NCBI GenBank assembly: GCA_036785375.1
Contig: JAWMAR010000006.1
Location: 6,696,001 to 6,760,000 of the forward strand
DNA length: 64,000 nucleotides
Source: Leucoraja ocellata
Taxonomy: Eukaryota
Direction: 5' to 3'
The position numbers and the translations under genes were made by a program. The stretch's first letter is position 1. Each line of letters opens with the position of its first letter. The notes beneath the pieces were generated by a model that was not told the DNA's origin, did not search any database, and was given only the letters and a program-made list of their open reading frames with translations. This document shows, piece after piece, positions 9,246 to 62,989 of the stretch.

Positions 9246-10287
9246 AAATATAAAGCAGCCTACTGGCTCGCTGATGCATGCATTGTAGCAAAGTAATCTT
9301 AAACTGTGCTAAAAACGCTTTGGATTTTTTTGTGTTGGAAGGAACTGCAGATGCTGGACACAAAGTGCTGGAGTAACTCAGCGGGTCAGGCAGCATCTCC
9401 AGGAAAAAAGAATAGGTGACGTTTCGGGTCGAGACCCTTCTTCGGTCATGTCGCTGTGACACTTGCATTTACAACAAGTTTTCAAGGACCGTGGTGAAAT
9501 ATTATAAATAATTTACATTCTCCAGGTTCTTGAGGTACATGGTGACGATGCACTCCACACGATGACACTCTATTAAAGATATTTCGCATGTTCTTTTACC
9601 GTGAAAGGATTGTGTGCTTCAGTTTCCCCCCAACTCTCTGCTTGGTTAATTAAAAAGGACATCAACAAGCTTCAGCACCTGGAATTTGGATTGTATTCAT
9701 TTCTGGCGCACTCAGTGCCGTGTACAACAAGAACATCCGCCAGTTATGCATGCAAAAACAAACCTCCCCATAAAATAGACCTAAAACATCTTCGTTTTAA
9801 ATCACGGGCTGATTTATACGCAGAATCGTTCATTAAGAAGGAATCTCGCTCCACTTTGTGCTCCCGAAATCACATTATGGCTGCTAGGGTAAGACAGAGG
9901 CTTCAAAGTGAGGTACAGAGTGTGCCTGGATTCAGTTAATGCGACACGAAGCATAACTGCACAATGTTTTCGCCAGTGGAGAAAGATGTCGGTGGAACAA
10001 TCTGGCCCTGCCTATTTGGGTGGGTTTAGAGAACAATTACATCGAGCCATGTCAGAAGTAACTTAATAAATTGATCAGCAATGTCAAGGTGACATAGGTT
10101 AATGCAAAAATACAAATCTTTCATGCCGACGTACATATATTCATACATACACACTTATTTGCATTTATTTACACTCACACAGGCTGCAACTTCATTTACA
10201 CTCTCCATTTTCTCCAATACAAACCCCACTCTGATCGCACCATTGCCAATCCACCCCTGGCATAATTCCTACATAGAGGCTAAGCAT

Positions 10288-10590
10288 GGGCGGCACAGTG
10301 GTGCAGCAGCAGAGTTGCTGCCTTACAGCACCAAATACCCAGGTTCATTCCTGGCCATGGGTGCTGTCTGTATGCATTTTGTAGGTTCTCCTTGTGACCG
10401 CGTGGGCTTTCTCCAGGTGCTCTGGTTTTCTCCCACAATCGAAAGACGTGCAGGTTTGTAGGTTAATAAGATTTTGGCAAATTGTCCCTAGCGTGTAGGA
10501 CAGAACTAGTGAGAAGGATGATCATGGTTGGCACGGACTCGGTTGGCCAAAGGGTCTATTTCCATGTTGCATCTCTGAACTAAACTAAAC
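10288..10590 (+). mobile_element. tRNA-derived V-SINE (HE1-like), full length
   Basis: GGGCGGCACAGTGGTGCAGC A box, GGTTCATTCC B box, V-domain (GTGGGCTTTCTCCAGGTGCTCTGGTTTTCTCCCAC), (TAAAC)n tail. Confidence 0.88.
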
Positions 10591-11325
10591 AGATGCTGGT
10601 TCACAAAAAAATGCTGAATTTCTCAGCAGATCAGTCAACATCACTAGAGTACATGGATAGGCAATGTTTCAGTATAATGTATTGAAATGTCACCTAGCCA
10701 TGTTCTCTATATATGCTGCCTGACCCCCTGGGTTACTCCTACGCGTTGTGTCTTATTTGTGTCCTTTCCATCCCTTTTTAATCCAGGGAGGGCAGCTGCT
10801 CTGTAGCCAAATCCTGCCACCTCAACTTCCCATGAGAGGGCCAGTGCTTCTTTTGAGAATGTGATGACATCACTCGGACTGAGGGGCAGACGACCATCTC
10901 GTCCTGGCGACGATCTCCCCTCTGATCTGATCAGTGGGTCCTCGTTGCCATTGACATTGTTACATCAACATGAAGCTCACCTGCGTAACTAGCCTCAGCC
11001 CCGTCCTTTCAGGGTCTAGAAGCAGTCCAGTCTGTCTCCAAATGGACCTGAGCAGAATAATCGATGGAAGGAACGGAGGAGCAGGAAGTGGAAGATAGGA
11101 ATGATGATGCCCACACTGTGTCAATGTGCCCGAAACACTAGCCCGCTCTCCAATCTTTGCCATCTGAGCCTTCGCCACATGGCAATGTGAATAAACCTGT
11201 TGTCACTGTTAAACTATTATTCAGACCACCTACATTCCCATCAAAGTTATTTTCAGTATTTATATTACAAACAACATAAATTGGATCCCAGCACCAATTC
11301 CTGTGGAACACCATTTATAATATCA

Positions 11326-11818
11326 CTAGACCAAATGGGACCCGTTGGGTCCCGTCCACCAACGCGGGGGGGGGGGGGGTCTAGCGGGAGGGGGAGGGGT
11401 AGAGAGGGAGAGGGTAGAGGGGGACGGGGTAGAGAAGGAGGGGGAGGGGTAGAGAGGGAGAGGGGCAGAGAGGGAGCCAGCTTGAGAGGCCATTGTTACC
11501 GTTGGCAACATCCCATTGTGATGTGATTGTGACAGTTGGCAGGCAGCTTGAGAGCCCATTGTGATTGGTGCACTGAGAGGCATTGTGACATCATCACAGG
11601 ACGCTCTCTGAGAAAGCGTTTTTTTTACTTTAAATCATGAATAACTTCAGAAATATAGGTCGGAATGCAACGGGAAGATGTTTATTGCTTCCACGGGGAA
11701 AATGTGAGTAGAATATGTGAAAATGGGAAGGCTGTGGCATAGTGTTTGGAAGAAGATAGGAAAAAGCAGAACAGAGTGACACATTGCCGGCACAAACAAC
11801 GAGTTTTAGTAATATAGA
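11326..11818 (-). mobile_element. Non-autonomous Helitron
   Basis: On the - strand it starts A|TCTATATTACTAAAACTC and ends with hairpin GGGACCCAACGGGTCCC, a short spacer and CTAG|T; inserted between A and T with no TSD. Confidence 0.8.
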
Positions 11819-13180
11819 TAAGACATAGGAGCAGAATGATAGATGATGTTTTGGGTTGGGACTCTTCTTCAAACTGAAAGGGATGAAGAATGGTAACTTT
11901 TTCATTCAGCTAGTCATTCAGCTCAACGAGTCTGCTCTGCTATTTAATCATGGCTGATCTAATTTTCCCTATCAACCTCATTCTCCTTCCTTCTCTCCCA
12001 TAACCTTTGATGCACTTACTAATCAAGAACCTATCAATCTCCACTTTAAAAATATCCAATGACTTGGCCTACACAACAGTCTGCCGCAATGAATTCCATA
12101 AATTCACCACCCTCTGGCAAAATAAATTCCTCTTCAAGTCAAGTCAAGTCAAGTCAAGTCAAGTCAAGTTTATTCGTCACATACACATACGAGATGTGCA
12201 GTGAAATGAAAAGTGGCAGTGCTCGTGGACTTTTGTGCAAAAAGACAAACAAACAAACAAACAACCAAACAAACTATAAACACAAAGGATCTTCCTCTTC
12301 ATTCTAAAGGCATGTCCCTTTATCTTGAGGCTTTGTCCTCTGGTCCTAGACTCTCCCACTACTGGAAACATCCTTTTCATATGCACTCTATCTTGGCCTT
12401 TATTTAGTAAGTTTCAATGAAAAACCTCTCATCCTTCCAGGGAGTATGGGTCCAGCATCATCAAATGCTCATCATACATTAATCTATCATCCCCAGGATC
12501 ATTTCTCATTATATTCTTCTGGACCCTCTCCAATGCCAGCGGATTCTTACTCAGATATTGGGCCCACGTACAGAATTCCAGCCAGAAAAAGTCCCAATAT
12601 CTTCATACAACTATAGCCCTCTATTTCAAGCAATATCCTGGTGGACCTCTTCTGCACTCTCATTGCAGCTACCACATGCTTCCTGGATTTTGCACAAAAC
12701 TCCAAATGTGGTCCAACAAAAGTTTTGTACAGCAGCAACATGATCTCCTGACTCTTAAACGCAATGCATTGTCTATGAAGTAAGCATACCACATTGCCTC
12801 CCTGCCCTATCCATCTGTGTCACCATTGTCAGGGATCAATGGACTTGTACTCCAAGATCTCTCTGCACATCAGCACTCCAAATATTCCTGCCATTTACTA
12901 TATATGTCCAACCTGAATTTGACTTCCCGAAGTGCCTTAACTCACACTAGTGTGGAACAAATTCCATCTACCACCGCTCTGCTCTACTCTTGAGCTCTTC
13001 TATACCCTGCTGTAGCCTTAGAAAACCACCTTCATTATCTACGACTCCACCAATTTCCCTGTTGTCACAAACCTACTAATCAGATCGCTTATCCCATCAT
13101 CTAAGTCATAGATATTGCAAAACAAATGTGCCAGCACAGATTCCTACAATCCACCACTTGTAACAGACTTCCAATCAGAA
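11819..13180 (-). mobile_element. Degenerate CR1 LINE fragments with a nested (TCAAG)n-tailed insertion
   Basis: - strand frames give FPVVGESRTRGQSLKIKG and LYKTFVGPHLEFC. The nested piece at ~12136-12291 is flanked by TTCCTCTTCA direct repeats. Confidence 0.8.
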
Positions 13181-13616
13181 AAAAAGTTCCCATTCTTCAT
13201 TCCTTTTCAGTTTGAAGAAGAGTCCCAACCCAAAACATCATCTATCATTTTTCTCCAGAGATGCTGCCTGACCCACTGAGTTACTACAGCACTCCAGTAT
13301 TAAATAGTTGTCAATGATGTGTTTGATGGGTCCCATTGCATGATTCTATGAGCATTTACTTGCCTGCAAAACAACTTGGGGTGACTTGCAGCAGGCAGGA
13401 AGACTTTGGATGATATTAGTGAAGGAGCCCATTCAGCAGTCATGCTCCAACCATGTCTTACTTGGTTCTATGCTTCACCTTCTTGATCCAGAATGCTGTG
13501 CCTATCAGATGGGTACATGCAGATCCAAGTAACTTTCCAAAGAAAATTGGATTGCAGTTTAAAAGTAAGGCACACAGAACAATGGGGGAAAGAAATCGGA
13601 GCAGAATTAATTGGTT

Positions 13617-13824
13617 AGAAGAAACTGCAGATGCTGGTCTAAACCGAAGCAAGACACAAAAAGCTGGAGTAACTCAGCGGGATAGGCAGCATCTCTGGGG
13701 AGAAGGAATGGGTAACATTTCGGGTTTAGACTGAAGAAAGGTCTTGACCCGAAACGTTACCCATTCCTTCTTTCCAGAGATGCTGTCTGTCTCGCTGAGT
13801 TACTCCAGCTTTTGTGTCTATCTT
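13617..13824. mobile_element. Palindromic (tail-to-tail) Penelope-derived element with a hammerhead core
   Basis: About 70-bp inverted arms around CTGAAGA...CCCGAAACGTT (13731-13758); AGAATTAATT(G/A)GT repeated on both flanks. Confidence 0.75.
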
Positions 13825-19367: not shown

Positions 19368-21467
19368 GTTTGGCAGTGACCACATCAACACTCGCAGCAG
19401 GGTGATCTCATGATGATCTAATTTATTTACAGTGGTAAGTAAGTCCTGGGCTGCATGGGGGCACTGTTCCTCACCGTCAGGGCGCATGTGTGGTGGCGCT
19501 TGAAATTTTGGACTTGTCCCGCAGCTCAGTCCGGGTTTCGAAGGAGTGGGCATGTTAATCTCAGGCTTCCACCTGTAGTTCACCCTTCCCTCAAGATCAT
19601 TGTCAGTGTTCCCCAGCCATGTTGAAATCATTCCCCGACTTTGGGAGATCAGAACTGGTTCTTGATGTGGACCTTCTGTTGGTAAAGCCGACTTTGAGCT
19701 TTTAAAAGCCAGACTCGCATCAACGGTCTGAGTTAAATATTTCCTGAGCAACCATGGTACGCTACACTACGTGTTAGGAACTCTCTTCAGTAATTCCCAA
19801 AACGTTGCCTTATTCACTCTCTATTAGTGACCCACAATATGGTGTGGGTAAACTGGTAAATTTGGTCAAGGAAATGTAAGAAAGGCATAAATAATGCTAT
19901 CAAATGATAGGGAGGTGAGACTACCAAAGTTATATTATCATCAGACCAGTGATATGCAGAGATGTAAAGTCCACTTTGACAATACATCCCGGGATTCCCT
20001 GCTACATGAGAGCCGGAAGTGGTTCAATGCTTTAATGAGTGGGCGGGTAACTGTATTGGCAACAATGTAAGAATGGGCTGCAGCAACTAAATTTTCAGAC
20101 TGCATCAAGCTGGCAGTAGGAGAATTTGCATTTCGTTGTCTCTGTACTGCACATGCATTTCGTTGTCTCTGTACTGTACACTGACAATGACAATTAAATT
20201 GAATCTGAATCTGAATCTGAATGCTGGCAAAGGTCAGATAATATGGAGGCCTGGCTGGTGGGTAAAAAAGCTGTCTGAACAAGGGCAGTTGGGATGCATC
20301 CTGTGCAAAAGCAAGAATGACGCCCTTCAGCGCCAAAAATAAATCCATGTTCTCTGATTTTATCATCAAAAACCTGGGGATAAGAGTGAAATGACATCAG
20401 AATTGCTTACTCTATTTAATGTTATGGAAGTGGGGTTCATCATTTACGAGCCCTTACTTGCTGTAAGACGTGTTGGTAAGAGTATCTTCTGTCAGATATT
20501 CTTAACTCTGGAGCTGTACTAATCCTGTTGCTTATTTGTGCAGGCTGAAAATGTTACTTATTAATTTCCTGGTTTCATGATTGCAGGTGCCTCGAAGAAC
20601 TTCTTCCTCAATCCAGCACAGGGTTGCACATACTGTGCTGCTGCCCAGTGGCTCTCTATTGAAACTGCAGGCAAACCTATTATAAATATTAAAGATCACG
20701 CAAAACTGCAGAAATGTATTAAAAAAAGGTCAAGGCCAAATAATTATTCCTTGATAAATGTTAATGTCCCACAGCAAGGACAATTCTATTCATACATTCT
20801 GACAATCCTTTGAGTTTTTTTAATAGCATTATAAACCGCAAATTTTGAAGTCCAATATTTGAGTTAAATTACTGGCCTTCAATTTTGAGCAGAAATAGAT
20901 AATACATTAAATTCTGATTCAAGAGTGTGGATGCGTATTTCTCCAATCCACCCCAGGGTAAATGGAGGTTGAGTTTCAGGCCTGGGGAACGATAGAAGGT
21001 TGGAGGCTGTGGAAGGGAGATCGCCAGAGGCAGTGAGATTAGAAATAGCTTGACAGATGATGGCCTGGTGTTCGTCTGTAGGGTCATTGTCAAGGGTTAA
21101 GTATGAGGAGGTGTCCGAGAGTTAGTGCCTGGCCTCAGCACAGTAGAAATCAGCCCACCAGACTACAAGACCATATAAGTCAGCCTGACGGACTACAATT
21201 TTCAGTGGGAGGCTGCAATACATTCTTACTGTATCTTACTACTAACCTTCGTGCCTTTTCTGCATGCCATGAAATTCATTCATACCAGCTATAGATGTAC
21301 TGGTTAAATTATCAGTGGGAGTACAGAGAACATTCCAGACAACTGAGTAAATAATACCACTGTGGCATCTCTGCAATTTAAATTCAATTAAGAATTTCAA
21401 ATAAACAATGATTAGTTTTTGGGGTGGTATCGTGACATAGCTGGCAGGGGGTTCTTCCTTACAGCTC

Positions 21468-23651: not shown

Positions 23652-23654
23652 ATG
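23652..23654 (+). CDS. rpl37: 60S ribosomal protein L37, exon 1 (ATG only)
   Basis: ATG|GTGAGT donor directly after a short pyrimidine-rich leader, in a CpG island. Supplies the missing Met for exon 2. Confidence 0.9.
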
Positions 23655-25226: not shown

Positions 25227-25385
<159 letters not shown>

Positions 25386-25687
25386 TAGCTTCTCTTCTGT
25401 GTCCTCTGAGGTCAACTTGTTTGCTGATATATTGGCAAGGTTTTGATTCTGATGATTGATGTTTTAGATGAAGCTTTGTCAGTTAACACATTTGAATACT
25501 GATAATAATTTGTGACTGCAGAAAAGGTGAGAATGATTGTTTATAACTTACATGAGACATTCTGAATGGTACAATGTTTAATATTATTGCTTATATACAT
25601 GTAGCATTGAGAGGTAATTTCATTTGACTTATCAAATCCATGCTGGTAATTTTCGCCAAATAACTTACCATTAAGTCCATGAGATAC

Positions 25688-26305
25688 AAGGAACTACAGA
25701 TGCTAGTTTACAAAAGGCGCAAAGTGCGGGAGTAACTTGGCGGGACAGGCAGAATTTCATGGCAACATGGATAGGTGATGTTTCAGGTCGGGGCCCTTCT
25801 TCAGGCCCTACAGTGAGTTGGGAAGAAGCTGCAACAACAGTAGCAGTAACACCTGACCCTATACCTCCTCCTTCATCCATCCACAAGCCAGCAGTCCTTC
25901 TGGGTGAGACAGATTTCTGTGCACCTTCTATAACCTCGATTTGGCTGTTTTATCGTCGGCGAGATCAGGCGTAAACTCGGCATCCGTTTCCCCGAATCTT
26001 TTTCTGCTCTGTCCGCCAAAGCCTGCTGGATCGCTTGGTTACTAACCATTTCAATTCCCTTTCCTATACTAACCTTTCTGTCCTCGGCCTACATCATTAC
26101 TAGACTGATGCCACATGCAAACTGGAGGAACAGCACCTCGTATTCTTCTTAGGAAGCTTACAATTCACCACTATGAACATTGAATACTACATTTTTGTGT
26201 AACTTCCCTAGAAACAACTTTTTTTTCCTCCAGGGATGCTGCCGGACACGCTGAGTTACTCCAACACTGCCCTTTTTTTGTAAACCGGCATCTGCAGTTC
26301 CTTGT
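25688..26305 (+). mobile_element. Penelope-like element remnant (GIY-YIG region) flanked by oppositely oriented terminal modules
   Basis: 25960-26190 reads GEIRRKLGIRFPE...VTNHFNS...SVLGLHH...CKLEEQHLVFFLGSLQ...MNIE, resembling the Penelope endonuclease C-terminus. Flanked by the hammerhead-bearing repeat module. Confidence 0.75.
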
Positions 26306-26439
26306 CTCTGCCACCTATTGATCTTTTGATTACTAAGTATTGAGTGAAGTGAGCTCAAAGATGGTAAAAGTCAGCATAGTCAATCAAGTCTGTTGCACTG
26401 CTTTTTATTCAGCATTTTGTTTGGACATTTATTGCTTAA

Positions 26440-30707: not shown

Positions 30708-32698
30708 TACAGCCAGAGCTCAGCAGTTCCGCAATTGCGGCCACCAGCGCAGGCTTTCTTGCGTCACCGTGCCTGGTCGCCTCGGGCCCGGGAGGTGCCG
30801 GAGATGAAGACAGTCATCAGGCCGAATGACTACGGAAAAAAAAAATACGCCTGCGGGCCGGATGATTTTGGGTTATGGGCTGCATTTGGCCCAGGGGGCT
30901 GTAGGTTGCCGACTCATTCATGTGTAGCAGGCATGGTATTCTTCCGATTTAAATCGGGATTCCATTTTTTGTGCCCGATTATTTGGCGGCCAATCAACCG
31001 CTGTCTCTAAGAGGGTTGCGTCCAATCATCCACTTCCCTTAAAATCCGCTTCGGCCTACAGTTCTCGAGTCAGCCGCTGTGTCCAAGGGCGTTCCATCAT
31101 CGACCACCTTCTCTTAAAATTCCCATCCAATCAACAAATCGGTCTGCCGTCCAATCAGCCACTGTCTCCAAGGGCGTTGCGTCCATTCACATAATGCACC
31201 GGTCACTCGGCGGCCAATCGGACGCAGTCTCCGAGGAGTGTTGTGGTCAATCACCCACCAGCTTCCCTTACTGAAGCAGACGATTTTGCAGCAAAAAGGA
31301 ACCTGTTAGCAGCTCAACGCTAGAAAGAATCACAGGGAAGCCATGTTGAGCAAGCTTACAAAAAGAAAATGTCAGGCAAAGAGGAAGTCAAATTAGAGTT
31401 TAGGTAATGTTACTAATGTCATAGGTTTATCAATTACCCTTTCTGTGCTGTTTGCACACAGTGCTAGGCAAAGGGACATTTCAGGTAACATTTTTTGTAA
31501 AGATTTTTTTAGTTGTATGAATTCATTTATTTAATGAAATATTTATCTTTTGGTGGTTATTTTACTGGTTATGTGTTAGAAAAATTCTAAGCTTCTGTTA
31601 TGTAAACCACCAGCAGAAAGCTTGGGAATCACTTTCAATTTATTGAAAATGTCCCTGTAACATCCCCTGACCCCGCCTGGGGCCCAACCATCCTCCTGGA
31701 CCCTTAGCCAATACTTCCTATACTGGTGGTGAATATCATGCCTGGTGTAGGGATGTTCATAAGTCTGGTAGACACAAAAAGCTGGAGAAACTCAGCGGGA
31801 CAGGCAGCTTCTCTGGAGAGAAGGAATGGGTGACGTTTTGGGTCGAGACCCTTCAGACTCATAAGTCTGGTGGCCCTGTAGTCACTGCTTGCAAACTTTC
31901 ATGTTTTAGGCAAGAGGGACAGATTTAGTGCCTGGCATGTATTCAGGTGGGTTCCCGATTGATGTATAAGCAATAAAGTTAGACAGTAATACATGAAATA
32001 ATTTACAACAATTTATTGGAAGACATAATTTTTTGTGCCGTCAAACATAGAGTGGGTAAAATTCCTTGCCAGAATGGATTCCACTTGTACTTACGAAATA
32101 GAACTCGAATTTGATAGATTAATACTGTGTTCAGCATAGGTTTGAGGTTTAAGTCAGATTGTGAATTTGGAACAGAATTTGCAAAGAATTGGAAGTTAGT
32201 TATGAACAGAAAACTGATCCTAAACTTAAGCAATTACAAAGTGATTAATGATATTCCACGGGGATTAATGGTGGGGCCACTGTATATTTATCTACACTAT
32301 TTGTGTTCCCTCTGGTTGTCATGTAGATGACTGGCTTTCAGAATATATGTTCAGCCATGTGACCCAATACAGGCAAACCCAGTGTTATGGGAGTGTATGT
32401 ACTTCGGAAAGCTCCATATTGTAGTTTTTCATACTACAAAGCCATGTCATTACATCGAGAAATGCAATTTGAAAAAGTTATGCTTTTTCCACAAATTTCG
32501 TGAGTGCAAATTTTATTCCGTGTCAAACTTTTGAGTGATGTTTTGTGAATACTGTAAGGGGAAATTTTCCATTAACCGAATTGCTGTGACCAAGTAAGTT
32601 CTTGGTCTACAGCTTATTTAAACGAGCAGAGATGGCAGCCAATTCCAGAACATCCTGTGACCCACCCAAGTATTCTGCTGTCCACATAGAACATCACC

Positions 32699-32835
32699 AA
32701 CTGAATCTCAGTCTGAAGAAGGGTCTCGGCCCGAAACGTCACCATTCCTTCTGCAGAGATGCTGCCTGTCCCGATGAGTTACTCCAGCATTTTGTCTATT
32801 TTTGGTGTAAACCAGCATCTACAGTTCCTTCCTAC
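32699..32835 (+). mobile_element. Short Penelope-derived element with a hammerhead ribozyme core
   Basis: CTGAAGA-A-GGGTCTCGGCCC-GAAAC-GTC at 32713-32740; ACATAGAACATCAC duplicated on both sides. Confidence 0.75.
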
Positions 32836-34542: not shown

Positions 34543-35714
34543 CAAGGCAGGAGGGAGAACACTAAGGTACGAGAGCCAGAACGTGATGTCACTCGAGATA
34601 GTAGTTGCAATGATCATGTTCTTGATATGCATCAGATTCTTCAATAAGGACTGTATTGAGGAGACGCAAGAGACTGGATACTGAAACCATGAGGGGGAAA
34701 ACTTGGATCTCGGGTTAGGCAACATCTATGGAGGGAAATGGGCAGACAACATTTTGGTTCGGGACCCTTCAAGACTCACTGGAAGACTGCTGAGTTAATT
34801 TCACAGAGGGTAGGGTGAATTATTATGTCTTGGACCACACCAGATGTTTTGGATACACTGAGATACTTGTAGATGTTTGCACAACTGGGAGCAAACGTTT
34901 TACTTGCCAATCCTCTCCATGTTAACATAATCACTGCTCCAGATTTCATATCCATTAGTAAGCCTATTGCCCATAGAAAATTGAAGTTTCCATTCATAAT
35001 ACCGTTAAATCTGACAACAGATTGTGAATTTTGTTTTCCAAGTTTCTAATTGCTCAATATTAGCTTCCAAAATTTTCCTGAGTATTGATGTCAGGCTAAA
35101 TGCCTAACGATTAATAATTCCACCCTCTTGTACTGTGGGGGTACATTTAATACTTTTCAATTCACTGCGATTTCTAGAACTGAGCCCAGTGCTGTCCTCT
35201 CGCACCCAACAATCAGGGATGTTGATAGCAAGCTGGAGTGGTGAAAACTGGCTGAGTTTTAACATGTAACGCCAGAGCAAGGTAGCTGGTTGTAACAGCA
35301 TTCTCCAGGAAGATCAATTGATCCATTCTGAAAAAGAACCAAAGCTTGGTCCTTCTTGATCTTGAGATATAAATACATGGATAGATGTACATGGATAGGA
35401 AAGGTTTAGATGGATATGGGTCAAATGCAGGCAAATGGAACTATCACATTAAAATACTTTAATTTAGTTAAACACTGACTCTACATCTCCAATGTATGTT
35501 CAAGTAGATTAAATGCTTTCACGTATTTGATACGTGATCAGTGAAACTCATCTTCATTGTGACATTTTTGATGCTATCATCACTGAATGTCCCATTGCTC
35601 AAATGTCTCAGTTTCTGTTCTCGCCAAGATGTTAACAATTCACAGATTTATTCCATGGTTTCATTTATCCATTTATGATGCAGTGTGCATTAGTTTCAAT
35701 TAGTAGTGCTATAT

Positions 35715-39425: not shown

Positions 39426-39820
39426 ATTTCCTCCCACACTTCAAAGACGTAGGTTAATTGGATTGGTATAATTGTAAATTGTCCGTAGTGTGTGTGGGAT
39501 AATGGTAGTGTGCAGGGGTCGCTGGTCGGTGCTGACTTGGTGGGCTGAAGGGCCTGATCCCTCGTTGTATCTCTAAACTAAACTAAATAAGCTCTGTTGG
39601 AAAGAACTGCAGATGCTGGGTTTTTTTTAAACTCGAAGGTAGACATAAAATGCTGGAGTATCTCAGCGGGACAGGCAGCACCTCTGGAGAGAAGGAATGA
39701 CGTTTTGTGTCGAGACCTTCTTCAGCTCCTACCCAACAGCCATCGACCTCTTGAACACTACAAACACTAACTAAACTAAGAACAACGAACCGTCTTGGTT
39801 ACACTAAGGACTTTGGGGCT

Positions 39821-42466: not shown

Positions 42467-43584
42467 CTGCAATTGGAACAAGAGAAGACATGTTTCAGGT
42501 GACGGAAGAGCTCGGTCATCTCAGCGTTTGACAGAAGCGCGAGTGAGAGGTTGCAGCTTCCTCTAGTGGGGACCCGAGTCTCGCTGAGGGACGGAGCGGT
42601 GCCCATGGAGGTCGCCGCATGGGGAACTCCGGGGAACTAGAGATGTGAGGCCAAGTTCTTGTTTTAGGAAAGATGGACACAAAATGCTAGAACAGGAGGT
42701 TTCAGGTCGGGGCCCTTCTTTAGGCTGAATGTATCGGGGAATGAACTGGAAGCAAGAAAAGACCAGCACACAGGGTGGCTCTGTTTGTTGGCGAGGGACA
42801 ATGAGATCCCGGGAGGGATATATCGTTGCGAACTGTGGAGCTGATTATCCGACTTTTGATGGAGGAGATGCGGGGAGGTGGGGTGCGCGGAGACTTTGCC
42901 TTAGTTCATGCCACTGGGTTGGACTGGGGAACGGGAGAGGTGCCTTTATTGGGCGGGTGTCTGCGGGAGAGTTCCGTCGCCACTGGCAGGATTAGAGGTT
43001 CCGTGAAATTCCGGGGGAGATTCCGCTGTGGGATCCTCATACAATAGTGAAACGTATAGTTCCACTGCCTCAACAACCCCGGGCTGTCTCCAGTCGCCAA
43101 TGTCCTCTCCCCACTGTGACACCGGGCTCCACTTTAGGCAGCTGGGACCCCTCACGTTCACTTGGATCAAACCGGCACAAAGCGGATAAACTAACGGGAG
43201 TAACTCCGCGCAAACTCAGAGATGAAGTTAGTCTCAGACAGACAATTTTCACAAGCACATGCAGAGACAGAGCAACTGCACCACAAAGAGAATGATTAAT
43301 GCCCGAGCCGGCTGCCTGCCCCTTTTCTGTGGTTACCGCCGCACCCGGGTGATACTCGAGAGGGATTACGCGGGCGCCCTGGGGGATTTCCGGGAATGTT
43401 GGGCTCTGCGTGGGGTGGAAGTCATTCTCAATAAGGATTGTACTATAGTTGTATAGTATAGTATTTAGTATATTTGTTTGCCTTGAATTATGGCGGTGGG
43501 TTTTGTTTTGATTTATTTCGTACTGTAAATATTATTGTAAATAATTGATTAAATACTTTTTGGTTCAAAACCGATTAACCGAGA

Positions 43585-49100: not shown

Positions 49101-52100
49101 CAAGAAACATTGAGAAAAATGTTTGTGCAACTGGGCACCTTCATTCACCACTGGTTTTCAGAACGAATGATTCTGTTGTAGAAAATTTGCAGAATAAACA
49201 TAAACTGGAAATGTATTTCATTGGGAGCCAAACTTGAGGAGGGTATTCAACAATCGCTCACGATTGAGAGTCAAAGGTTTGGTGAGATGGACAATCTCCT
49301 CCTTGGCCTCCTCACTGCTTGCCTTCAGCAACTGGCGTACAACAACATCCAGGTCTCCACTTTGCCAACCTATCTGCACTGAGATAATAATCTCTTAGCC
49401 ACTTATCTGGTTCAGCCGCTGCTGAAAGTCACATTCTATCAACTTATGTTGACTTTGTCCAATATATAAATTAACAAAGAAGAATGGTGGGAGTTACTGT
49501 TTGGTAGAAGGAATCTGAAAGTGCAATACAAAGCAGAGTGTACAAATATAAAAACAGTGCAAGAACAGAGCTATCTAGAGGTGTATGTGCATGTTTTAAT
49601 GAAAAGCATAAGTCAAGGTGACACAGGTCCTCATCAGCAGAGACAGAGCAACAGTAAGTAAGTCATGATAGGAACTTTGAGAAAACACTGATTCGGCCAA
49701 AACTGGCGTTTTCTGTTGAGCTCTGGGCTGTTGAACTCATACATATTGAGTTCATAATTATTCAGCAATCCCAGGGTATAATATTCATCTATTTTACCAG
49801 ATACATCCTCAGACATCCAATTGATCAGTAAAGTGTGATTTCCACAAATCTGTGTTGATTCTGCTTAATCATGTAATTATTTCCTAGGAGGCCTGATCTC
49901 ACACCCTTGATTGTAGGTTTCAGCAACTATTGATGCCAGTCTAACAGATTGGTAGTGAGCAGTTTTCTTCTATCTTATACAATGGGATTGGCTCAATGGA
50001 AGTCCCGCTCGCACACATCATACAGCGTATCTAGGCAATGTTGAAACATGGGCAGATAAGTGGCAAGTAATGTCCACAATATAGAAATGCCAGACCATGG
50101 CCATGTCTAACAAATGTAAGTCTAACCACCTACCTTTGACATTCAATGCCATCACTATCTCTGAGCCTCCTCCACACCATGATCAATTTCCTGAGGATCA
50201 GCTTGAGCATAAATTCAACTAGACCAGTTGTGAATTCTCCACGAACAGAAAGGCCAAATGCAGCATATGTTGAATTGATTGATCTAACTCCCGATACCGC
50301 AGAAACTTTCACCATTTACAAGGTCCAAGTGCTCTTGATTGGAATACTCTTCATCCAGCGAGATGAACACATCTCCAACAACATTCCTAATGTTTAACAC
50401 TGTTTCAGACAAGGCATAGACAAGACAAGCCATTGGATGGCTGCTTAACCACCAGCCTGAAGATTTATTACTTCTAACACTGGAGTACAATATCGGCACT
50501 GTGTCCAATCTACAAATGCTCTCGAGTTACTTCCCCAGGTTACAACGATAACACGTACAAAACTGTCTACCAAGAACACATGGCAGAAGATGCATGGTTG
50601 TACCACCACGGTTGTATGGTCACTTCTAAGCTTCAATAGCATCCTGTATTGGAAATATATTGATAGACCTTTATTGTTAATGAGTATAAATCCTGGATCT
50701 CCCTATCCACCCACACTCTTGGAGCACCTTCACCAGTAGGAATGTAAACATTCCAGAAGACAGGTCACTACCACTTTCCCATGGGCAGATAGGACAAATA
50801 AAGCTTGACAGAGAAATTAAAATGTAACTAAAATGTGATTGACTTTGGTTGTGTGGATTGTCTTGTTCAGATAATGGAAATCTCACAGTAGTATTTAAAA
50901 GCTTATAAGGAATCGACAGAGTAGAAAGGAAGAGACTATTTACATCGGTAGAGGGCAAAGAATCAGGGGGAATGGAATAAAAGGGAATGGAAAAGTGACT
51001 TTAAGAACATTTATGTATATGGAGAGTGCTGTGAAGAAGAAGAGTGAAGGAACTTTTATTGTCACAAGTCGCAAAATGGAATGATGACATTTTTACTTGC
51101 AGCAGTGCAACAGAGAGCACAATATAATGCAATACTAGTGGAGCATCAATGCAATGTGCAGAAAGGAATTGGACATGTACAGTATCTGAATCTGCAGGGC
51201 TGTGGGGAGAGGACTGGGGGTTGGGATGCTGGACTTCTCTTACATAGGAGTGGTTTGGAGTCAACAAGCTGAAAGGCACCTTTCCGTGATGTAACCATTC
51301 TGCGAGTCTGTGATTCTTACCCTCCAATGTTGAACTCTGATGCTGAGACAGTGACACCAATGCGAGCAGCTCTATTCCAGTTGAGCATCTCCTGACTTGG
51401 AGCGGTTAGTAAGGTAGTTATTAGTAATGGCAGTTATTTCCTAGTGTCCTGCTTTGTTTCTGCCCTGTCCAGTCACGGAGATGAAATGGCAGCTCGTGGC
51501 TCCAGCAAACACCTTCCTTTGTCAGATCCAGTGCTTCCAAAGCCATGACTCTCTCATTTGTTTAGAATCCTTTAACCCCGAGAACAATAATGCATGTTAA
51601 GTCGCATTGTTGGTAGCTGTTAACCACACAAAGTGTCTGAAATTTTCTCCTTACAACAGAATCCTCACAGCAAAATGTTAAAAATGGAGACTTGATGGAA
51701 AATGGAAGTTAACTGTTCAGTTTTTGTTCAGCCAACATTACTGAGTACACAAGGAACTGCAGATAGACACTGGAGTAACTCAGCGGGACAGGCAGCATCT
51801 GTGGAGTGAAGGAATGGGTGATGATTTGGGTCGAGACCCTTCTACAGACTGCAGGAACTGCAGATGCTGGTTTACAAAAAAACCCACAAAGTGCTGGAGT
51901 AACTCAATAGGTCAAGCAAGATCTCTGGAGAACATGGATAGGTGACATTTTGTGTCGGGACCTTTGTGTGTTTGTTTCTATTTTTCATCTGTGAATAATT
52001 CTGTTTCACTCCATAGAACTGATATTATAAATAGAGCTATCTGAAGAAGGGTCTCAACCCGAAACTTCTCTCCAGAGACACTGCTTCACCCGTTGAATTA

Positions 52101-52229
52101 CTCTAGCATTTTGTGTCTACCTTATAAATAGAGCTGATGGACTCATGCCGTTGTCAGTTGAATTTTAATATGCTATCAGTGAACAGTAGTGCCTTGTTGG
52201 TCATATATTCTACTCATGCATTCAATTGA

Positions 52230-55200
52230 TCAGTGTGATAAATCTAATTGAAATAAAATCAGGATATTGAAGTCAACTGTGTTAATTTTAATAGAGAAAT
52301 TGTATTCATTGAGCCACGGCTGCAGAGAGTTAGTACTACACCAATCAGTTTACATTATTTCAGATCAGCTTCAGCACATGGTTTATATTGTGATGAGTGA
52401 GGTCTGTGACTTGATCTAGTGGGAGAGAACTCCATGGGATATTCCGGCATTATTGAGCAGTGTAAATGTGGAAGAAGCATTCTTTTCAATGCTCCAACTT
52501 TTTTAATGAAAATGTGCTTGTCGTTTAAAGAAAGAGGTCTGGTACAGTTGATATCAGCTGCACCCTGGGTGTGAAAATAACAAACATCTGCGGCCCCAGC
52601 AGGAAACGAGCTGCTATTTTAAGGAGCGGGGCTGCCCAGAACTGAGGCAAGATGTTTAGATTGTGCCTTTTTTACCATATTATCCAAATATCATAGTTTC
52701 TCTTCTATCATAGATGTTACTTTGAGTATTAATCAGGCACTTGACTGTTTAAAGGGACATATTCTCTGGCGCTCTCATTGAGTTGTGACAGTTAGAACAA
52801 GAATTGCTTCAGAAATTCTGGCATGTTGTTTTCCTGAATAACTTCACTCCATAGATTTTTCTCTGAATTCTCTGGGATGAAATGTTAATTCATGTTGATG
52901 GTTTACATTACGACAGCGAGTCCACCTCCATTACATTGAAAAAGCTTGGTTTCCTTTCCACTGAAATCAGAGAAATTCATGTAGTTCGATGCAGAATGCA
53001 ACATCAATTCAATGTCACCCACTTTACATCCATCCAACTGATCCTCTGTATATCTGTGTCCTCATGATGTTATTTTATTATTTTTCTTTGATGAATTGAT
53101 CGCTTTGTTTTTGAAATCTGTGAATCAGCCTGGTCTGTGCATCAACAGCGTAGGTCCCACTGCCCCATTGGCCTCTCTTCCATTGAGAAGCCGGACATTG
53201 CGTGTGGAGAGACAAGTTCAAGTGAAACTAATGGCATCGTGCCCCCTCCTCTCACACCCAGCAATCGGGGGCAATGAGGGTGAGCAGGAATTAGGAAATA
53301 CTGGCTGAGTTCTGCTGTGTGTTGCAGGACATCTAGAGAAAGATGACCTTGCATTGCCAAGACCGTTGCCAATAAGCTGGTGCACCTTCCTAGACGGTAC
53401 ACCCTCCCACTACAGTCAAATGTTTATTCAATTTTCACATCCCAAGGGGTTGACCCTCTCCCAGTGCACCGAGGACCTAATTGAGCCTTCAAATAGTCAG
53501 ATCCAGGAAAGGTTGGAAGATTAGAAAGTGAGGATGCTTGGAGGCTACTAGAGTTCTGGCTGATGTGCGGTGTTTGAATGTGAGATTTTGCATGATCAGT
53601 ATCTTCGATCATTCTTTTCTTTTTAAAGCCTGTCCATTCGAAATTCTCTTTTGAAATGTGAATTATTGTGTTTTAGGTTTCCCTGCACGTTTGACCCTTG
53701 AGAATGATGTGTGTGACTGATCTGTGAGATTAGAGCATTGCAGAGTTATGGGATTTTTTGAAATCAGTTTGCTTTGCACAAAGGGAGTAAGAACAAGGGA
53801 TCGAGAGACATAGCAAGTGAGAAACAGTGAAAGAAAGAGGGAGAGAGAGCGAGTGTGATAGAGAGAGAGAGAGAGAGAGAGGAACTTAAAATGCTGTTCT
53901 GTACAAGGAGGAAGTTGAATGTATTGTTTTTATGACTCAAAGAATTGGATGAGACTGAGGGAAAGATTCTGTGTAATTTCATGGGAAAGTAAATTGCAGG
54001 ACCTCTTACATTTTAGGAGGCAATGCCACAATGTGACTGAGCTGCACTAAGGAGAGAACTCTTTAAGCTTCTGCCCACACATTCTCTCTTCCTCCATTTT
54101 GCCATGAGTGATAAAGATTTAACAGATTGTAGCATTTAATTTTTTTAAATGTTTAATGTTTAATGTGGCCTCAGACTGAAGAAGGGACCCAACCTGAAAC
54201 GTCACCCATCTTTTTTCTCCAGAGATGTTGCCTGACCCACTTTGTTACTCCAGCACTTTGTGCCTATCTTCAATTGTTACTTGCATTGGCATACTCAGTG
54301 TGAGTTGGTGACATGATTTTCCTTTCCCTTCCATAGGCTGATTACTCGGGGAAGAGCTGACTTGTAGTTACTGGCATTGAGGCATTCCAGGGATCCTTGT
54401 GAAGGTAGCGTGTTTTATTTTGTTACACAGACAGAATAACCGGCATCAAGTTTGAGTCCACCCTGGCAGAACCAGTCCACCTCCTTTACCCCTTCTACTC
54501 TTGCTACATAAATCAATGATACATCAAAGTGCACCAATTGTTTCATCTTCAGTACCCCAAGATGATCAAATTGTATGGTAGGACACCATCCCTTCTTTAA
54601 TCCCCTTAAATAATATGAAGATCCTTTCAAAGCACATTGTATGGGGAACATTCTTTAATCTTGGCAGCTCAGATGAAGCAGCTTGAGCTATTGAGCTAGA
54701 AAAATGCAAAGCTATGACCAATCCACAAAACTAAGGACAAATTTAATGTGGCTAAGTACCAATCAATCATCTGTAAAGTGATGCAAGCTGTTGTCAACAG
54801 TGGCACTCATTCTAAAGTGACCAACTCACTGATGCTCAGTTTGGATTTCCCCCAGGAACTTGCTATCTTCATAAACTCGGGATTAAAAACACAGTCCAAA
54901 CAATTGAATTCCAGGGAATCTCAAACTGTTTTAACCTGTAACCAAATTAAAACCAACGTATTATTTTCAGAACTCTATTTAGTGATGATGAGTCATTTGT
55001 TGGCAACTGCAGTTTTTAAATCTTTGTAGCTGAAACAGATCCGTGGAATACAAATTCTGAATGCCTTACATGGGCATTGAAGAAAATCACTTTTTTCAAA
55101 GTTGAACGCTGAATATAGACACAAAATGCTGGAGTAACTCAACGGGACAGGCAGCATCTCTGGAGAAAAGCAATGGGTGACATTTCAGGTTGAGACCATT

Positions 55201-58200
55201 CTTCAGCCTATGTTGAATGTTGTGTTTGTTCCAGACATTTATGCTTTTAGTTGAACACACGCACATTTGAAAAACTGAAATATGGTTAGAAATGCAAAAA
55301 GCATAGTAAATATCAAGACTAGACTTTCGAGGATAAAGTATTTGCAATTGGAAATCAATATTTGAGATTTCACCCAACTGTCCCAAGTTATTTCCCAAAG
55401 GAGTAATTCGGATTCAAGGATATTTAGTAATATACTAGACCAAGTGCAGACTGCTCCCCCAACGCAGCCGTTCGCTACATAAACATGACGAAATTTAATG
55501 AGGAGTGGATACTTGGAATGAAAAGTGAAATCTCTACCGAAATGGAAAAAATCTGGGCGCTTGTGGGTCTGGTGTTGGCGTAGCAACGAATCAAAGGCTG
55601 GCACCCACAGGCTGGCAACCACAAGTCAGGCAGATACAGAGCCAGTCAGCAGCCACAGAGTATTAATGTTATATAGAAGATAGATAGATATAAATAAAGA
55701 TAGATACTTTAGATGTTCAGATAATAAATGAAGAAAAAGAAAAGAGAGGGAAGGAAAAAACACCCTTTTAAAATGGGAAATAAAAACAAATCCCTCCTTT
55801 AGTTTTCCTTTATTGGGATTCTTAAGGAATAAATAAAGGATAAAATATTTTAAAGATCTCCAGTAAAATACATCTTTAACACTCATTCCAAAGACTAGAG
55901 GAAGAGGGTATCAGTGGGTGGAAGCTGAGACAGCTCTCTTCCTCACACAATGCATTTTCACGGTGACAGTGCCTCCTAAAATGTAAGAGATCCTGCAACT
56001 TAAATTTATGATTAAATTGCACAAAATCTTTCTCTCAGTCACATCCAACCGCGGACATAACAAATACCGCAACTTCCTCCCAGTGCGGAACAGTTAAAAT
56101 CAACAACCCTTTAGCTTTCCCTCTCTCTCTCTTTCTCTCTCCTACATTTTATTCTCTTTGTGTAAATTAAATTGACTTTAAATATTCCCAAATTTCTGCA
56201 ATACTGAGAAGCCGGACATTGAGTGTGGAGAGACAAGTTCAAGTGAAACTACTGGCATTGTGCTGCCCTCCTCCCACACCCAGCAATCGGGGGCAATGTG
56301 TGTTGCAGGACATCGAGAGAATTAATTCAATTTACTTCAAATATCCCCGAATTTCTGCAATACTTCAAATTCACAGATCATTCATTCACATCATTCTCAA
56401 GTGTAAGGAGTCTTGTAATTCCGTTTCTGATTAAATTGCACAACATTTCTCCATCAATCACATCTAATTCTGTGGGACAAAATAACATTTACCTCATCTT
56501 TCCCTGAGCAGAGAACAGCAAAATTAAACATTGTTATATTTCTCAAGGTCTCAGTCCTTTTTGCACTGGGATAGTATCATTTTGCCTGTGACCCCTTTCC
56601 CTTTGAGAGTTTGTTTGCCTCTTGCTTCATGTGACCCTCTTACCCCAGTTATAACGTTACCCCAGGTTTGTGCTTTGACTCCAACATGACTTTTCCCTTC
56701 CTGCCAGCAGCTCTTCACTTTTACCCTCTCCAGCCCACACACTCACCCCTTGGGATACCACATGGCTTTATGAACCTGCCCCACATTGAACACAAAGTGA
56801 TTTACTTTAATTTCAAACACGTGGTGTGATTGTTAATCTCTGGGTCAAAATCCGGAAAATGTTCTTGTAGTTTTTCCAATTTTGTAATGGTATTTTTTAA
56901 TGCAGGTTGCTGTTGTTGAGCGTGAAGAACCATGAAAAGTGAAGCGATTGCTGAATATGTCATGGATGTCAAATCTGTAGACCTGTGCTTGAGCCATTTC
57001 ACTCTCCAGCAGATAACAAGGCAGAGTGCTCCAATTTTGAGTACATCACTGAATTGTGTTGCCTTTTAGTTTTGGTCATACGTTAGATAACATTGACGTA
57101 AGGTTTAGACTTGACTGTTTTGTGGTCTCGTGGGCACCCTCCTATCCTTCAGCTCCACAGCTCTCAAGTGCCCATTATGCTGCTTATCCTGGCACAGATT
57201 ATACACTGTTCCAATGCTATAATTTAAGGTACGGGATGTGGCCTTTTGTCTTTATTTTAGCTTTTGTCTTTATTCCTAGGGAGACATTTTTCTTGTGTGT
57301 CTTTATAAACATTATATGTAGATACAGACATGAGCAATTGACTATCTCTGCGTGAAATAGCTTTGACTGTGGTGGGAGCGTGTGGTGAATAGGAAGGTGC
57401 ATGGTCTAATGCCATGAGATCTTCCTTGAGATGACCAGGATTACAGATCAGACGCACTTAGGATTTGTCCACCTGCTCACCATCAGTGTTCCTGAGCGGT
57501 GGGTGTGAGAGGACGGCAGAGCACTGTACAGTGACCCAAGGGAGGAGTGGTCACTGGATCAGTGAGACTGATGTTGCTGATGCACAGACCAGGCTGATTC
57601 ACAGATTTTAGACTTGGAGGGTAGATTTGACCAAAAATAATAATAAATGGAAGGTCATGAGAATGGAAGGACACACAAGGGCAGTTTAACTTTGTGTGGA
57701 TTAAATATGTCGATTGAATTCAAGCCCCATTGTGCAACTCACTTCATTTCTCAATTTGAAGGTAGACACAAAATGCTGGAGTAACTCAGTGGGTCAGGCA
57801 GCATCTCTGAAGAGAAAGAATGGGTGACGTTTTGAGTCAAGACCCTTCTCCCATTCTTTCTCTCCAGATTTAAACCAGCATCTGCAGTTCTTTCCTATCA
57901 CTTCTCAATTCCTTTGAATACAGTGGAAAATAAACCAGGCGTTGACTATGTAATGGGGATGAATTAACTTTCAGCCCTCTAAGCCATCAGCAATAATTAC
58001 ATTTTCCTCCCCCCAGAATTCACTGAAAAGTCAGTGGGTTGAAATTAATCAGCCAACCAACATGGCAAAATATCTAAAGCAATTCTTGTGCTGACTGTTA
58101 TAGCTCAAAGAGAGTACCAGAGGTAATGTCCCTTTAAATAGTCAAGTACCTGATAGATGCTCAAAGCAACGTTGCGGGTGGAACAGAGACTGTGATATTT

Positions 58201-59973: not shown

Positions 59974-60399
59974 AGTGTATAAAATACATCTCATGCATAT
60001 TGCTGTAAACATTACCCCACTCACCTTAAAGTTATGGCCCCTAGTGTTTGATATTTCCATCCTGGAAAAAAGTTCTGACTGTCCAATGTTGGCGGGAATT
60101 AATATTCCAGATGGTGGATGAGGTACAAATGATTTGAGTGGCTTTGTCCTGGATAATGGTGAGCTTCTGGAATGTTATTGGACCTGTGCTCATCTCAACA
60201 AGTGGAGAGTATTCTGGCCTTGCAAATGGTGAAAGGCGCTGTGCCGTCAGAGGGCGAGTCATTCACCTAGGGCTGATCCAGCCTTTGGTTTGCTCGTTAC
60301 TGTACAATTCATATGTCTGGTCCATATTAAATGATGGTAAATGGTGGCCTCATTGCCACATATCAGCCAATGTCTGGATGTTGTCTTGGTCATGCCGCA

Positions 60400-60553
60400 N
60401 NNNNNNNNNNNNNNNNNNNNNNNNNNNNNNNNNNNNNNNNNNNNNNNNNNNNNNNNNNNNNNNNNNNNNNNNNNNNNNNNNNNNNNNNNNNNNNNNNNNN
60501 NNNNNNNNNNNNNNNNNNNNNNNNNNNNNNNNNNNNNNNNNNNNNNNNNNNNN
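60400..60553. other. Assembly gap (154 N)
   Basis: Run of N. Confidence 1.
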
Positions 60554-62989
60554 TACATGTACAATGAGATTAAAAGCAGCTCGTACTCAGTGCATACATA
60601 TAATTTAGTACAAAAAACAAGAAACAGAAAACAAAACAAAAGGGGGAGGGGGCGGGATAGGTGCACAATTCTGCGGCGCTATATACATATCTATAAAGGC
60701 AAAATGGTGAAGGATGAATAGGTAGTATTCTTAGGCAGATGTTTAAAGATTATATTAAATATATTTTTTTTTTAATTAAAAATATTAAAAATTACAGTTA
60801 CAATACAGTAGTTATGGACTCGTTCATTTGCTGAGGAGCTGCAATCACAAGTGTACAACACCACTTCTGACTTTGTGAAAGAAGGAATGTTATTGATTCC
60901 ATCCTTTGGTGTATTTTCATCTCGATGCACATTGACTTTAATGTAACCAGGACAGCTTGATAGAAGGGTTTCGGCCCGAAACGTTGCCTATTTCCTTTGC
61001 TCCATAGATGCTGCTGCACCCGCTGAGTTTCTCCAGCTTTTCTGTGTAACCTCCAGCTTGATATCACACTTGGTCAAATGTTGCCTTGGTGTCACGGCCA
61101 CCCACTCTCTCCTCACCATTGGAATTCAGCTCTCTGGTCTAGTTACAGAATTATAGAATTGTCCATCATAGAAACAGGCCCTCTTGCACCTAAAATCCTC
61201 ATAAAATCCTTTCAGTTTCTCCATCATCTTTAAAAAAAAGATATGGATGGATACAGGCACTTCAGCCCACCACATCCACGCCGACTATTGGTCACCCGTT
61301 CGCACTAGATCTATGTTGTCATATCCCAGTGATGTTTCAAGGCTCTTCAATGCCCTACAAATATATTTTTTAACCAATATATATGCTCTTCAATGGACTC
61401 TCCCATTTTCAGTCACTTGTATCAGCCATATACTGCTTTCCTTTCTTCAAACTCTCAATATCATTTGATATCTAGGATTCCTTTAACCTTGCCATCCAAA
61501 TGAGAACATGTTTTCCCTGAACACTCACCCTCTCTCTTTTGAAAAAAAATTTGACTGGTTGGATTGTTGTGGTACCCACAAGCCGCTGCTCCCTGCCAAC
61601 TTTCTCCAGCTCCTGGCTTATGCTATGGAAACAGCCTTCCCCTAGTTTTGGATATGAACTTCCAGAGTATTTCTACCATTTTCCACAACTGCCTTGAATC
61701 TTGCAGAATTGCAATCCCTATCCTCAAAATGTTCCTCACTGACGCTTGCACTACTTGCTGAACCTCATTCCCAAAATACGTTCTAGTACAGACAGGCACT
61801 AGTCTATGTATTGGCTAAAAATACTCTGCTGGATGCTTGTCATGAATTCGACCCCATCTAAGCTCTTCATACTTCAGTAATCCCAATCAATATTGGGGGA
61901 ATTACATCCCATTGCAGTAACTGTTCCTCTTACACCAGTCTGTGATTTGTCTGCATTTCTGCTCCTCTACCTCCTGCTATCTGATCTGGAGATCTCAGGC
62001 AAGTGACCAGAGATTCAAAGATTTGCACAGAACAGCAACAGGCCCTTTCACCCATCTCATCCATGCCCACATTCGTGTCCATCTACACAATCCCATGTAC
62101 CCAAGCTAGGTCTGTATTTTATGCCTTGCCGTTTAAGTGCCTGCTTCAACCTTATCTTTAGCACTCACGGAGTAGGTTGCATAATGGTTGAGGACAGGGA
62201 TGTGTTTGGAGCCTCTTTCACCGGTTACCTGTTTAAATTGTCTTCCATCATTTCTGACCCAGCATGGCTGACTTTTGGGCTTTGATCTGGTCCATTAGTT
62301 GTTAGGTTATGCCATTCCACACTGAGTTTATTGCTAAATGTGCCAGCAATCCTCTGCTGCAGCTTCACTAAGCTGACACCACTTGTTCAAGTATGTGTGG
62401 TACTTGTCCCAACATGAGCATCCACGTTCCTCACTGAACGCGTGTTATTCCTCTGGCTTTATAGTAATGGTGAGGTGAGGGATATGCTGGGCAATGAGGT
62501 TATTTTTCTGGCGGACATTTCTGCTGCCGATGGCCCAGCACATCTCAAGTACACCCAGTTTCAAGCTGTCTACTTTGTTCTGAATCTATCCAAGTTAGCA
62601 TGTTTGCCAAAGCCACAGATCACGATGGAAGGTGTCCTTAGTGTGAAGATAACACTTTGCCTTCACAAGGACTGTGCACATGTTCAACCAATGTTGTCAT
62701 GGATGGGTGCATCTGCCACAGGTAGAGTGGTGCAGATGTGGTCACGTACGTTCATCACTACCTGCTGATTACTCAGTTTTGTCGGCTATCTTCTTCAGTA
62801 CAGTGTCACCTTATATTGATTGGGCAGCCAAGCTACTTTCAGTGTTTGGGAGGAAGCCTTTGTTACAAGTCATCCTCACTGTTTATGAAGCAAGTGAACT
62901 GGGAAATGCAAACCAATTAGCCTGACATAAGCAGTTAATGGAATGCATAATCAAGCACGTGTGATGACTGTAAGTTACCAAGAAAATAA

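Follow-up and report, generated by a model that had tools for sequence, protein, structure and literature searches.

We propose that the short hammerhead-bearing insertions dispersed through a 64,000-nt stretch of the Leucoraja ocellata genome (GCA_036785375.1, contig JAWMAR010000006.1, positions 6,696,001 to 6,760,000; hereafter the window) come from an endonuclease-bearing (EN+) Penelope-like element (PLE). Sequence comparison identifies the 95–135 nt module that they share as the terminal repeat (pseudo-long terminal repeat, pLTR) of this element. The module-only copies, here called stubs, are probably dead by-products of the full element, produced when reverse transcription is primed at the module's 5′ copy on the RNA and runs off at the RNA start. 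The sharp front edge of the stubs likely marks the start of the element RNA. A first-pass annotation of the window had described the insertions as the hammerhead terminal module of a PLE, inserted many times with its own target site duplications (TSDs), and that description stands; its proposal that the module forms a self-spreading, retrozyme-like family is not supported.

The link to a parent element is provided by copies much longer than the stubs. Module, reverse transcriptase (RT), GIY-YIG endonuclease (EN) and module follow one another in this order in 13 of 16 long copies fetched, with the modules about 3.9 kb apart, which makes the module the pLTR of an ordinary EN+ PLE. Full-length elements were reached by a genome search with sequence downstream of the 5′ module, and a search with the window's EN stretch and an RT fragment brought up many copies with a pyrimidine-rich untranslated region (UTR) of 100–320 nt between the endonuclease end and the module. 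For counts we used a sample of 862,846 bases, comprising the window, 200 kb of flanking sequence and 60 scattered 10-kb stretches of large contigs (0.025% of the assembly); a sense EN end lies at most 700 nt upstream in 26 of 311 sampled modules. One long copy holds a stop-free frame of 1,202 amino acids (aa) with DKG, YIDD, CX4CxxC and CxxC..YIGET, and some 35 nt separate the module's tail from the first in-frame ATG seen downstream of it. Pfam scored RVT_1 above its cut-off and GIY-YIG below it (E 0.003) on the element protein. The closest named proteins come from two sharks (59–62%), a fragment is found in a skate protein, and the other matches are unnamed or 'uncharacterized'.

EN+ PLEs are defined by a DKG motif and a CCHH motif with CxxC between GIY and YIG (PMC8557442). 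The element has both, within one open reading frame (ORF) that runs from RT to GIY-YIG, together with partial-tandem pLTRs, inverted 5′ copies and an optional tail of 30–40 bp. According to the same source, a CX2-5CxxC linker between RT and EN is common to Neptune and Nematis and absent from Penelope/Poseidon (PMC8557442). On the strength of its CX4CxxC linker the parent appears to be of Neptune/Nematis type, the two clades taken together; an assignment to Poseidon was rejected on the same linker. Two very young copies (G000:C6:6634495-6636333 and 6673448-6674298), less than 65 kb from the window, share 97–99% aa identity with another copy; the family has been active recently. The long N-terminal part of the ORF contains a tandem repeat (unit about 27 nt; locus L103, G000:C93, 2370-2720) whose variation alters element length between copies.

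The module is very abundant. A profile built from 29 near-complete copies, with C3 of the hammerhead core as position 0, returned 27 matches in the window, 191 in 463 kb and 367 in the full sample, and no match in the reversed control of any of the three. The matches cover 4.1% of sampled bases and extrapolate to about 1.5 million in the 3.44-Gb assembly, a figure that counts inverted pairs twice and includes loci duplicated in the assembly, so that a haploid genome has seen fewer insertions than this. Exact matches to a degenerate pattern of the 28-nt core number 62,033 in the assembly (reversed control, 0). Candidate TSDs flank 49 of 164 copies in the sample, compared with 12 of 328 mismatched-flank controls; they measure 10–18 bp, with a median of 13 bp and 68% AT.

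The ends of these insertions are not those of random fragments. The 3′ ends fall in two narrow peaks, at +90..98 (110/367 matches) and +123..131 (128/367), which we refer to as the short and tail ends. An optional tail is already known in PLEs (PMC8557442; PMC3846280), and in PAc, the Poseidon element of Anolis carolinensis, two internal RT start sites account for two 3′ ends (PMC11167929). At the 5′ side we counted young copies from 60 loci, of which one gave no match, seven were removed for a common flank (one perhaps wrongly) and one was removed as a second arm, while one duplicate pair of long copies was left in. Among the 43 young copies that reach +5, 20 stop between -5 and +5; only two of the other 23 end in the next 95 nt, and the rest extend to between -119 and beyond -1,400, into UTR and ORF. 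The first-pass annotation had considered that all copies might be random 5′ truncations of long elements; the sharp 5′ edge and the two 3′ ends show that they are not purely so.

The position of the edge could be refined genome-wide. Exact junction-like counts are 3,165 at -1, 7,423 at -2 and 4,992 at -3. The next pattern, V-CAGT, occurs 4,329 times, and in our letter tallies, made on 100 matches listed per pattern, 33 of 100 of those listed are not the T-to-C variant, giving about 1,430 compared with about 970 expected by chance extension. Because the counts fall sharply beyond -3, we place the 5′ edge at -3. This position is the A of TCAGT, a motif kept in nearly all ORF-linked copies and resembling the initiator (Inr) consensus. 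The Penelope element of D. virilis has an internal promoter with an Inr (PMC2377424), and an Inr-like motif occurs in rotifer pLTRs (PMC3846280). Among loci that contain the ORF start, 4 of 30 begin at -5..+2 (three of them independent).

Based on these ends, we propose the following course of events. The endonuclease would make a staggered double cut of 10–18 bp; double-strand cutting is reported for PAc (PMC11167929). RT would then start internally at one of two module sites, as PAc does in vitro. A unit RNA with its first base at -3, the A of TCAGT, would contain the module twice, so that priming at the 3′ module copy would give ordinary 5′-truncated elements and priming at the 5′ module copy would give run-off stubs of 95 or 133 nt. 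Two module copies would yield stubs and long copies in about equal numbers, and priming of both cut strands, at one site each, would yield inverted pairs. The hammerhead would be carried along uncleaved. Stubs themselves are probably no templates, since they lack the sequence downstream of the tail, which PAc requires (PMC11167929). A fuller version of this proposal, which we put forward as a tentative possibility, is that the genome preserves about one million natural PLE transposition products that document a step not described before, with an mRNA start at an initiator overlapping helix I, the module at both ends of the RNA and priming from both cut DNA strands, one of them at +93 and the other at +130. 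If that reading is true, run-off stubs of 95 or 133 nt result from about half of all events, and hammerhead-module DNA makes up about 4% of the genome.

It is also conceivable, though unlikely, that the stubs are cis by-products with a different kind of front edge, namely an RT stall or processing site at the protein-bound front of the hammerhead, met while the 3′ module is being copied. The edge does coincide with the 5′ strand of helix I, and 8 of 40 loci have 2–3 nt of target microhomology to GT/GTC at the junction; a transcript start was not seen in the RNA of related species, nor is a cap signature clear. Yet at the stop point RT is already past helix II and the core, and a stop caused by structure would be expected at a helix's 3′ side. 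The stall account also has to contend with a limit that falls on the A of the retained TCAGT and with nearly equal numbers of stubs and long copies (close to 1:1), which fit two modules per RNA.

A splice origin, in which the edge is a 3′ splice site (a pyrimidine tract and CAG before the core) and stubs derive from spliced RNA, we regard as highly improbable. ORF-linked copies do have a pyrimidine-rich UTR ending in CAG, and in D. virilis Penelope an intron end abuts helix I (PMC4209133). Against this, TSDs begin 0–9 nt from the edge with no common exon sequence, none of 80 ORF-end motifs is joined to the core, and conservation of the candidate donor is lacking. No GT..AG joint at the edge was found in four RNA runs, a weak test that reaches only about 19 nt beyond the site.

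Inverted pairs bear on the priming step of our run-off proposal. Head-to-head pairs outnumber tail-to-tail pairs 87 to 18. In tight inverted pairs, 35 of the 39 that can be classified join one short and one tail end (19.4 expected, p=1.5e-7). Both arms belong to one subfamily in 33 of 35 pairs, and they overlap by at least 20 nt in 50 of 54. Arms that overlap in sequence need either two module copies or a fold-back. The pairs therefore have a rival explanation in self-priming by fold-back, followed by trimming by the endonuclease (PMC3846280; PMC8557442). At three loci (L248, L250, L254) the first 8–10 nt of the core are directly repeated before the stub at the 5′ junction, which suggests re-priming after run-off. 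Chimeric junctions that combine module parts from different subfamilies (L165/L166, L191, L213) form a minority class.

We next asked whether stubs constitute a family of their own. All three large subfamilies include ORF-linked members (3/53, 10/94 and 10/43) and have similar stub fractions, and ORF-linked, UTR-extended, inverted and stub copies occur in all three in similar proportions. In a set of 84 stubs compared with 35 long copies, the nearest neighbor of a stub is another stub in 38% of the 84 cases, compared with 70% under shuffled labels. No stub-diagnostic variant emerged (best of 884 column tests, p=0.018), nor, within the limited power of this set, did SINE (short interspersed element)-like master lineages distinct from the autonomous element. 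The claim that the module spreads by itself is not supported: long copies are the nearest neighbors of stubs more often than expected, no variant is specific to stubs, and the ends lie off the ribozyme cut site. The stub boundaries, -3 and +93/+130, differ from the cut at +27, as they would not in retrozymes. Retrozymes are moreover defined by tandem units (bioRxiv 10.64898/2026.07.22.740005), and among 53 same-strand neighbor pairs in the sample there was no tandem array with a core in each unit, although rare arrays may have been missed in 0.025% of the assembly. The only near-identical array, a local one (L078 5407-5908, G000:C1), consists of 67-nt units, 94–98% identical, that cover module positions +19..+86 and lack the core.

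These comparisons make it very doubtful that the module is an independent non-autonomous retrozyme- or SINE-like element with its own internal promoter or dimeric hammerhead excision, mobilized in trans. Its appeal is that stubs are about 10 times as numerous as ORF-linked copies and have defined ends and TSDs, that the minimal core is intact in 35 of the 233 copies spanning it, that module RNA is abundant in related species, and that tandem PLE-derived retrozymes are reported in one chondrichthyan (bioRxiv 10.64898/2026.07.22.740005). The missing stub lineage, the core-less array and the mismatch of ends and cut site speak against it, as does a monomer hammerhead fold 7–10 kcal/mol above the minimum. 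The RNA, too, looks like passenger transcription. In four runs of fragmented short reads labelled as related species, read depth over the module is 20–100 times that of the ORF start, the two bulk runs have module reads equally on either strand, and 83–95% of reads continue into unrelated sequence.

The hammerhead itself is of type I order and lacks a helix III loop; its helix II measures 4 bp and its helix I 2 bp, and A9 is followed by an extra A. Subfamily majority sequences contain CUGANGA, the extra base, helix II, GAAA, the palindromic 15.2-16.2 and NUH. The extra A had been raised as a caveat on activity; an extra base, like the palindromic 15.2-16.2, is a conserved trait of PLE hammerheads (PMC4209133) and no defect. 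Our full minimal descriptor (boxes, 4-bp helix II and 15.2-16.2 pair) is passed by the 35 copies noted above and by one copy in the window. Rfam models gave no hammerhead family at E<=1, and their microRNA-like matches were dismissed as inverted pairs and palindromes only. In all three copies folded, the monomer hammerhead fold lies 6.9–9.8 kcal/mol above the minimum. Minimal PLE hammerheads are reported not to cleave as monomers and to cleave little as dimers (PMC4209133), and the anole PAc motif is reported to cleave only with protein and to be dispensable for insertion (PMC11167929). The helix II loop and closing pair vary among subfamilies while the boxes are kept, which points to maintenance of the hammerhead in master elements. 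In stubs the motif appears to decay, and most copies no longer have it intact. In the youngest subfamily, core positions carry 15 changes in 394 (3.8%) compared with 126 in 2370 (5.3%) elsewhere (p=0.27); the core there decays like the rest.

Several observations weigh against the proposal of dead run-off stubs. In older, mixed clusters the core is better kept than downstream sequence (5.0 vs 8.7%, p=1e-4; 11.7 vs 21.1%), a modest excess that speaks against pure neutrality and is missing from the youngest subfamily. Mixed subfamilies and A-richness may explain it, though perhaps not fully, and selection on stubs may play a part. A younger age of the long copies would bias the nearest-neighbor test. 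Most long copies reach far upstream of -3, so read-through RNAs also serve as templates. There is no clean cap-derived G at the edge: among the matches listed, G precedes -3 in 24 of 100 (28% expected) and -2 in 57 of 100 (30% expected). Inspection of 20 loci with G before -2 found six inverted junctions, three re-primed repeats, two inside the TSD, three apparently untemplated and six without an assigned cause. In the four related-species RNA runs, read starts and read ends accumulate at no point of the module, fragmented reads being a weak test. Finally, PAc belongs to Poseidon, and we extrapolate in carrying its biochemistry to this clade.

Within the window, the motif is found at all 13 positions cited by the first-pass annotation, on the strand given or the opposite one, and its five cited TSDs are real, four of them exact. 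The best-preserved copy is a direct stub with a tail end at 32698..32833 (+), which includes 15 nt upstream of the core and lies between exact 14-bp TSDs (32684-32697, 32834-32847). It holds the only fully intact minimal type I core of the window by our descriptor, at 32713..32740 (+), which we presume from the NUH rule to be cut after 32740. Two other cores that had been called intact, at 13731 and 54176, keep their boxes and have a damaged helix II. Direct stubs with short 3′ ends lie at 31770..31858 (−), with a shortened core box and an exact 13-bp TSD (31757-31769, 31859-31871), and at 52039..52121 (+), with the cut site lost by internal deletion and an exact 14-bp TSD (52025-52038, 52122-52135). 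A stub of the youngest subfamily at 60963..61053 (+) starts 5 nt inside the core and has an exact 10-bp TSD (60953-60962, 61054-61063). The fifth cited TSD, of 13 bp with one mismatch (57744-57756, 57898-57910), surrounds an inverted head-to-head insertion at 57757..57897, whose minus arm has the short end and whose plus arm has the tail end. A sixth TSD, also 13 bp (13603-13615, 13825-13837), flanks an inverted pair at 13616..13824, with a minus arm from +10 to +129 (tail) and a plus arm from the core to about +95 (short). No TSD was found at nine other window insertions tested (10 of 11 tested were negative).

The window holds further copies. On the minus strand are a stub with a tail end and a mutated U4 position (9331..9454), another with a tail end and a damaged core (39594..39729), one with a short 3′ end (55107..55217), one with an internal deletion (42669..42731), an old degenerate stub (34711..34777), a tail-end fragment (36367..36418) and two head-to-tail modules of different subfamilies (51748..51966; 73% identical), which form no retrozyme-like array. 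On the plus strand, an older-subfamily stub (54166..54278) has intact boxes and a damaged helix II, and an old fragment (3161..3224) lacks the core. An old inverted pair at 10589..10758 has no core start in either arm, and module fragments form very old inverted pairs at 1612..1758 and 7390..7509. An old stub at 13203..13293 (+) has private changes and a 5′ flank in common with 11828..11880 (−), a partial copy of that stub plus flank (71/76 nt identical). The matching segments, 11828-11902 (−) and 13181-13256 (+), lie 1.3 kb apart in opposite orientation and share about 25 nt of 5′ flank; their sequences indicate that an already aged stub was copied locally, and no fresh insertion.

The parent element is represented in the window by a broken, 5′-inverted copy at 25680..26306, with a minus module (25680-25814), a plus body including the EN C-terminus and a core-less plus module (26222-26306), at which no TSD was found. 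Its decayed GIY-YIG C-terminal coding stretch, 25975..26202 (+), has one internal stop and matches a long copy at 62% over 26 aa (E 5e-9; tblastn E 1.9e-10). A separate decayed fragment of the same element's RT N-terminal region lies at 20972..21199 (−; 56% aa, E 1e-15). The remnant, annotated at 25688-26305, had been suggested to mobilize the modules; as a broken, old copy itself it cannot fill that role, which falls to full-length elements elsewhere.

Other repeats were noticed alongside. A near-perfect palindrome of 121 nt at 30384-30504, with arms resembling module +50..+73, is single in the sample and is the source of a spurious Rfam microRNA match. A GC-rich hairpin at 29439-29777, with long inverted arms and a partial copy nearby, resembles a miniature inverted-repeat transposable element (MITE). 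Another abundant repeat has fragments at 1754-1848, 5406-5668, 17350-17654, 22970-23303, 38412-38752 and 21245-22522, with an RT-like frame at 21899-22522; it resembles a shark/ray CR1-type long interspersed element (LINE). A large inverted repeat (52283-52876 and 58010-58596) is 77–87% complementary, with copies 5–6 kb apart and no obvious long frame. Outside the window, a long host frame beside a Penelope remnant (L018 471-3190) resembles sulfite oxidase, judging from its translation.

The ribozyme and the element class are ordinary: PLE hammerheads as dispersed single motifs were described in 2014. We found no paper on this PLE family in skates or sharks, nor any on solo pLTR run-off or twin priming in PLEs, in a search that left out most subscription papers, Repbase and Dfam and so does not establish absence from print. 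These copies are valuable because they record PLE integration, whose mechanism has been only partly reconstituted so far, on a very large scale. From the strict short-plus-tail pairing and the sharp -3 edge follow direct predictions on where transcription starts and on how priming and inversion occur. For annotation it matters that the module makes up about 4% of sampled bases and is a common passenger in the transcriptomes of related species.

The hammerhead resembles the minimal motif of metazoan PLEs (Cervera and de la Pena, 2014, PMC4209133) in its type I order, its lack of a helix III loop, its palindromic 15.2-16.2, its extra base between A9 and 10.1 and its G10.1-C11.1. In that account, too, single motifs are dispersed by the thousands per genome, probably as truncated PLEs, with opposite-strand pairs close together. 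Helix II and helix I measure 4 and 2 bp here versus 7–8 and 4–5 bp in Schistosoma, with a 2-bp helix I in D. virilis, and the 62,033 exact cores compare with 4,000–9,000 motifs in coelacanth and Xenopus, by different search methods (PMC4209133). The parent shares with Neptune/Nematis-type EN+ PLEs (Craig et al., 2021, PMC8557442) the RT-linker-GIY-YIG order, DKG, CCHH, partial-tandem pLTRs, heavy 5′ truncation, an inverted 5′ copy and a 30–40 bp tail at one end only; it differs in how extremely module-only insertions predominate and in their sharp 5′ limit. Like PAc (Frangieh et al., 2024, PMC11167929), it has 3′ ends at two sites downstream of the hammerhead, some 35 nt from each other, targets rich in AT and products that cross an uncut ribozyme site. 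PAc does not have the linker trait of the clade, and the PAc ORF starts inside the hammerhead, in contrast to the position of the first ATG here. Animal non-LTR (long terminal repeat) retrozymes (bioRxiv 10.64898/2026.07.22.740005; see also PMC7229834) likewise combine a PLE-related type I hammerhead with short non-coding copies. Retrozymes, however, are defined as tandem units each with a full hammerhead, of which the 863-kb sample yielded none; the skate stubs occur singly or as inverted pairs, and their sequence is that of a coding element's ends.

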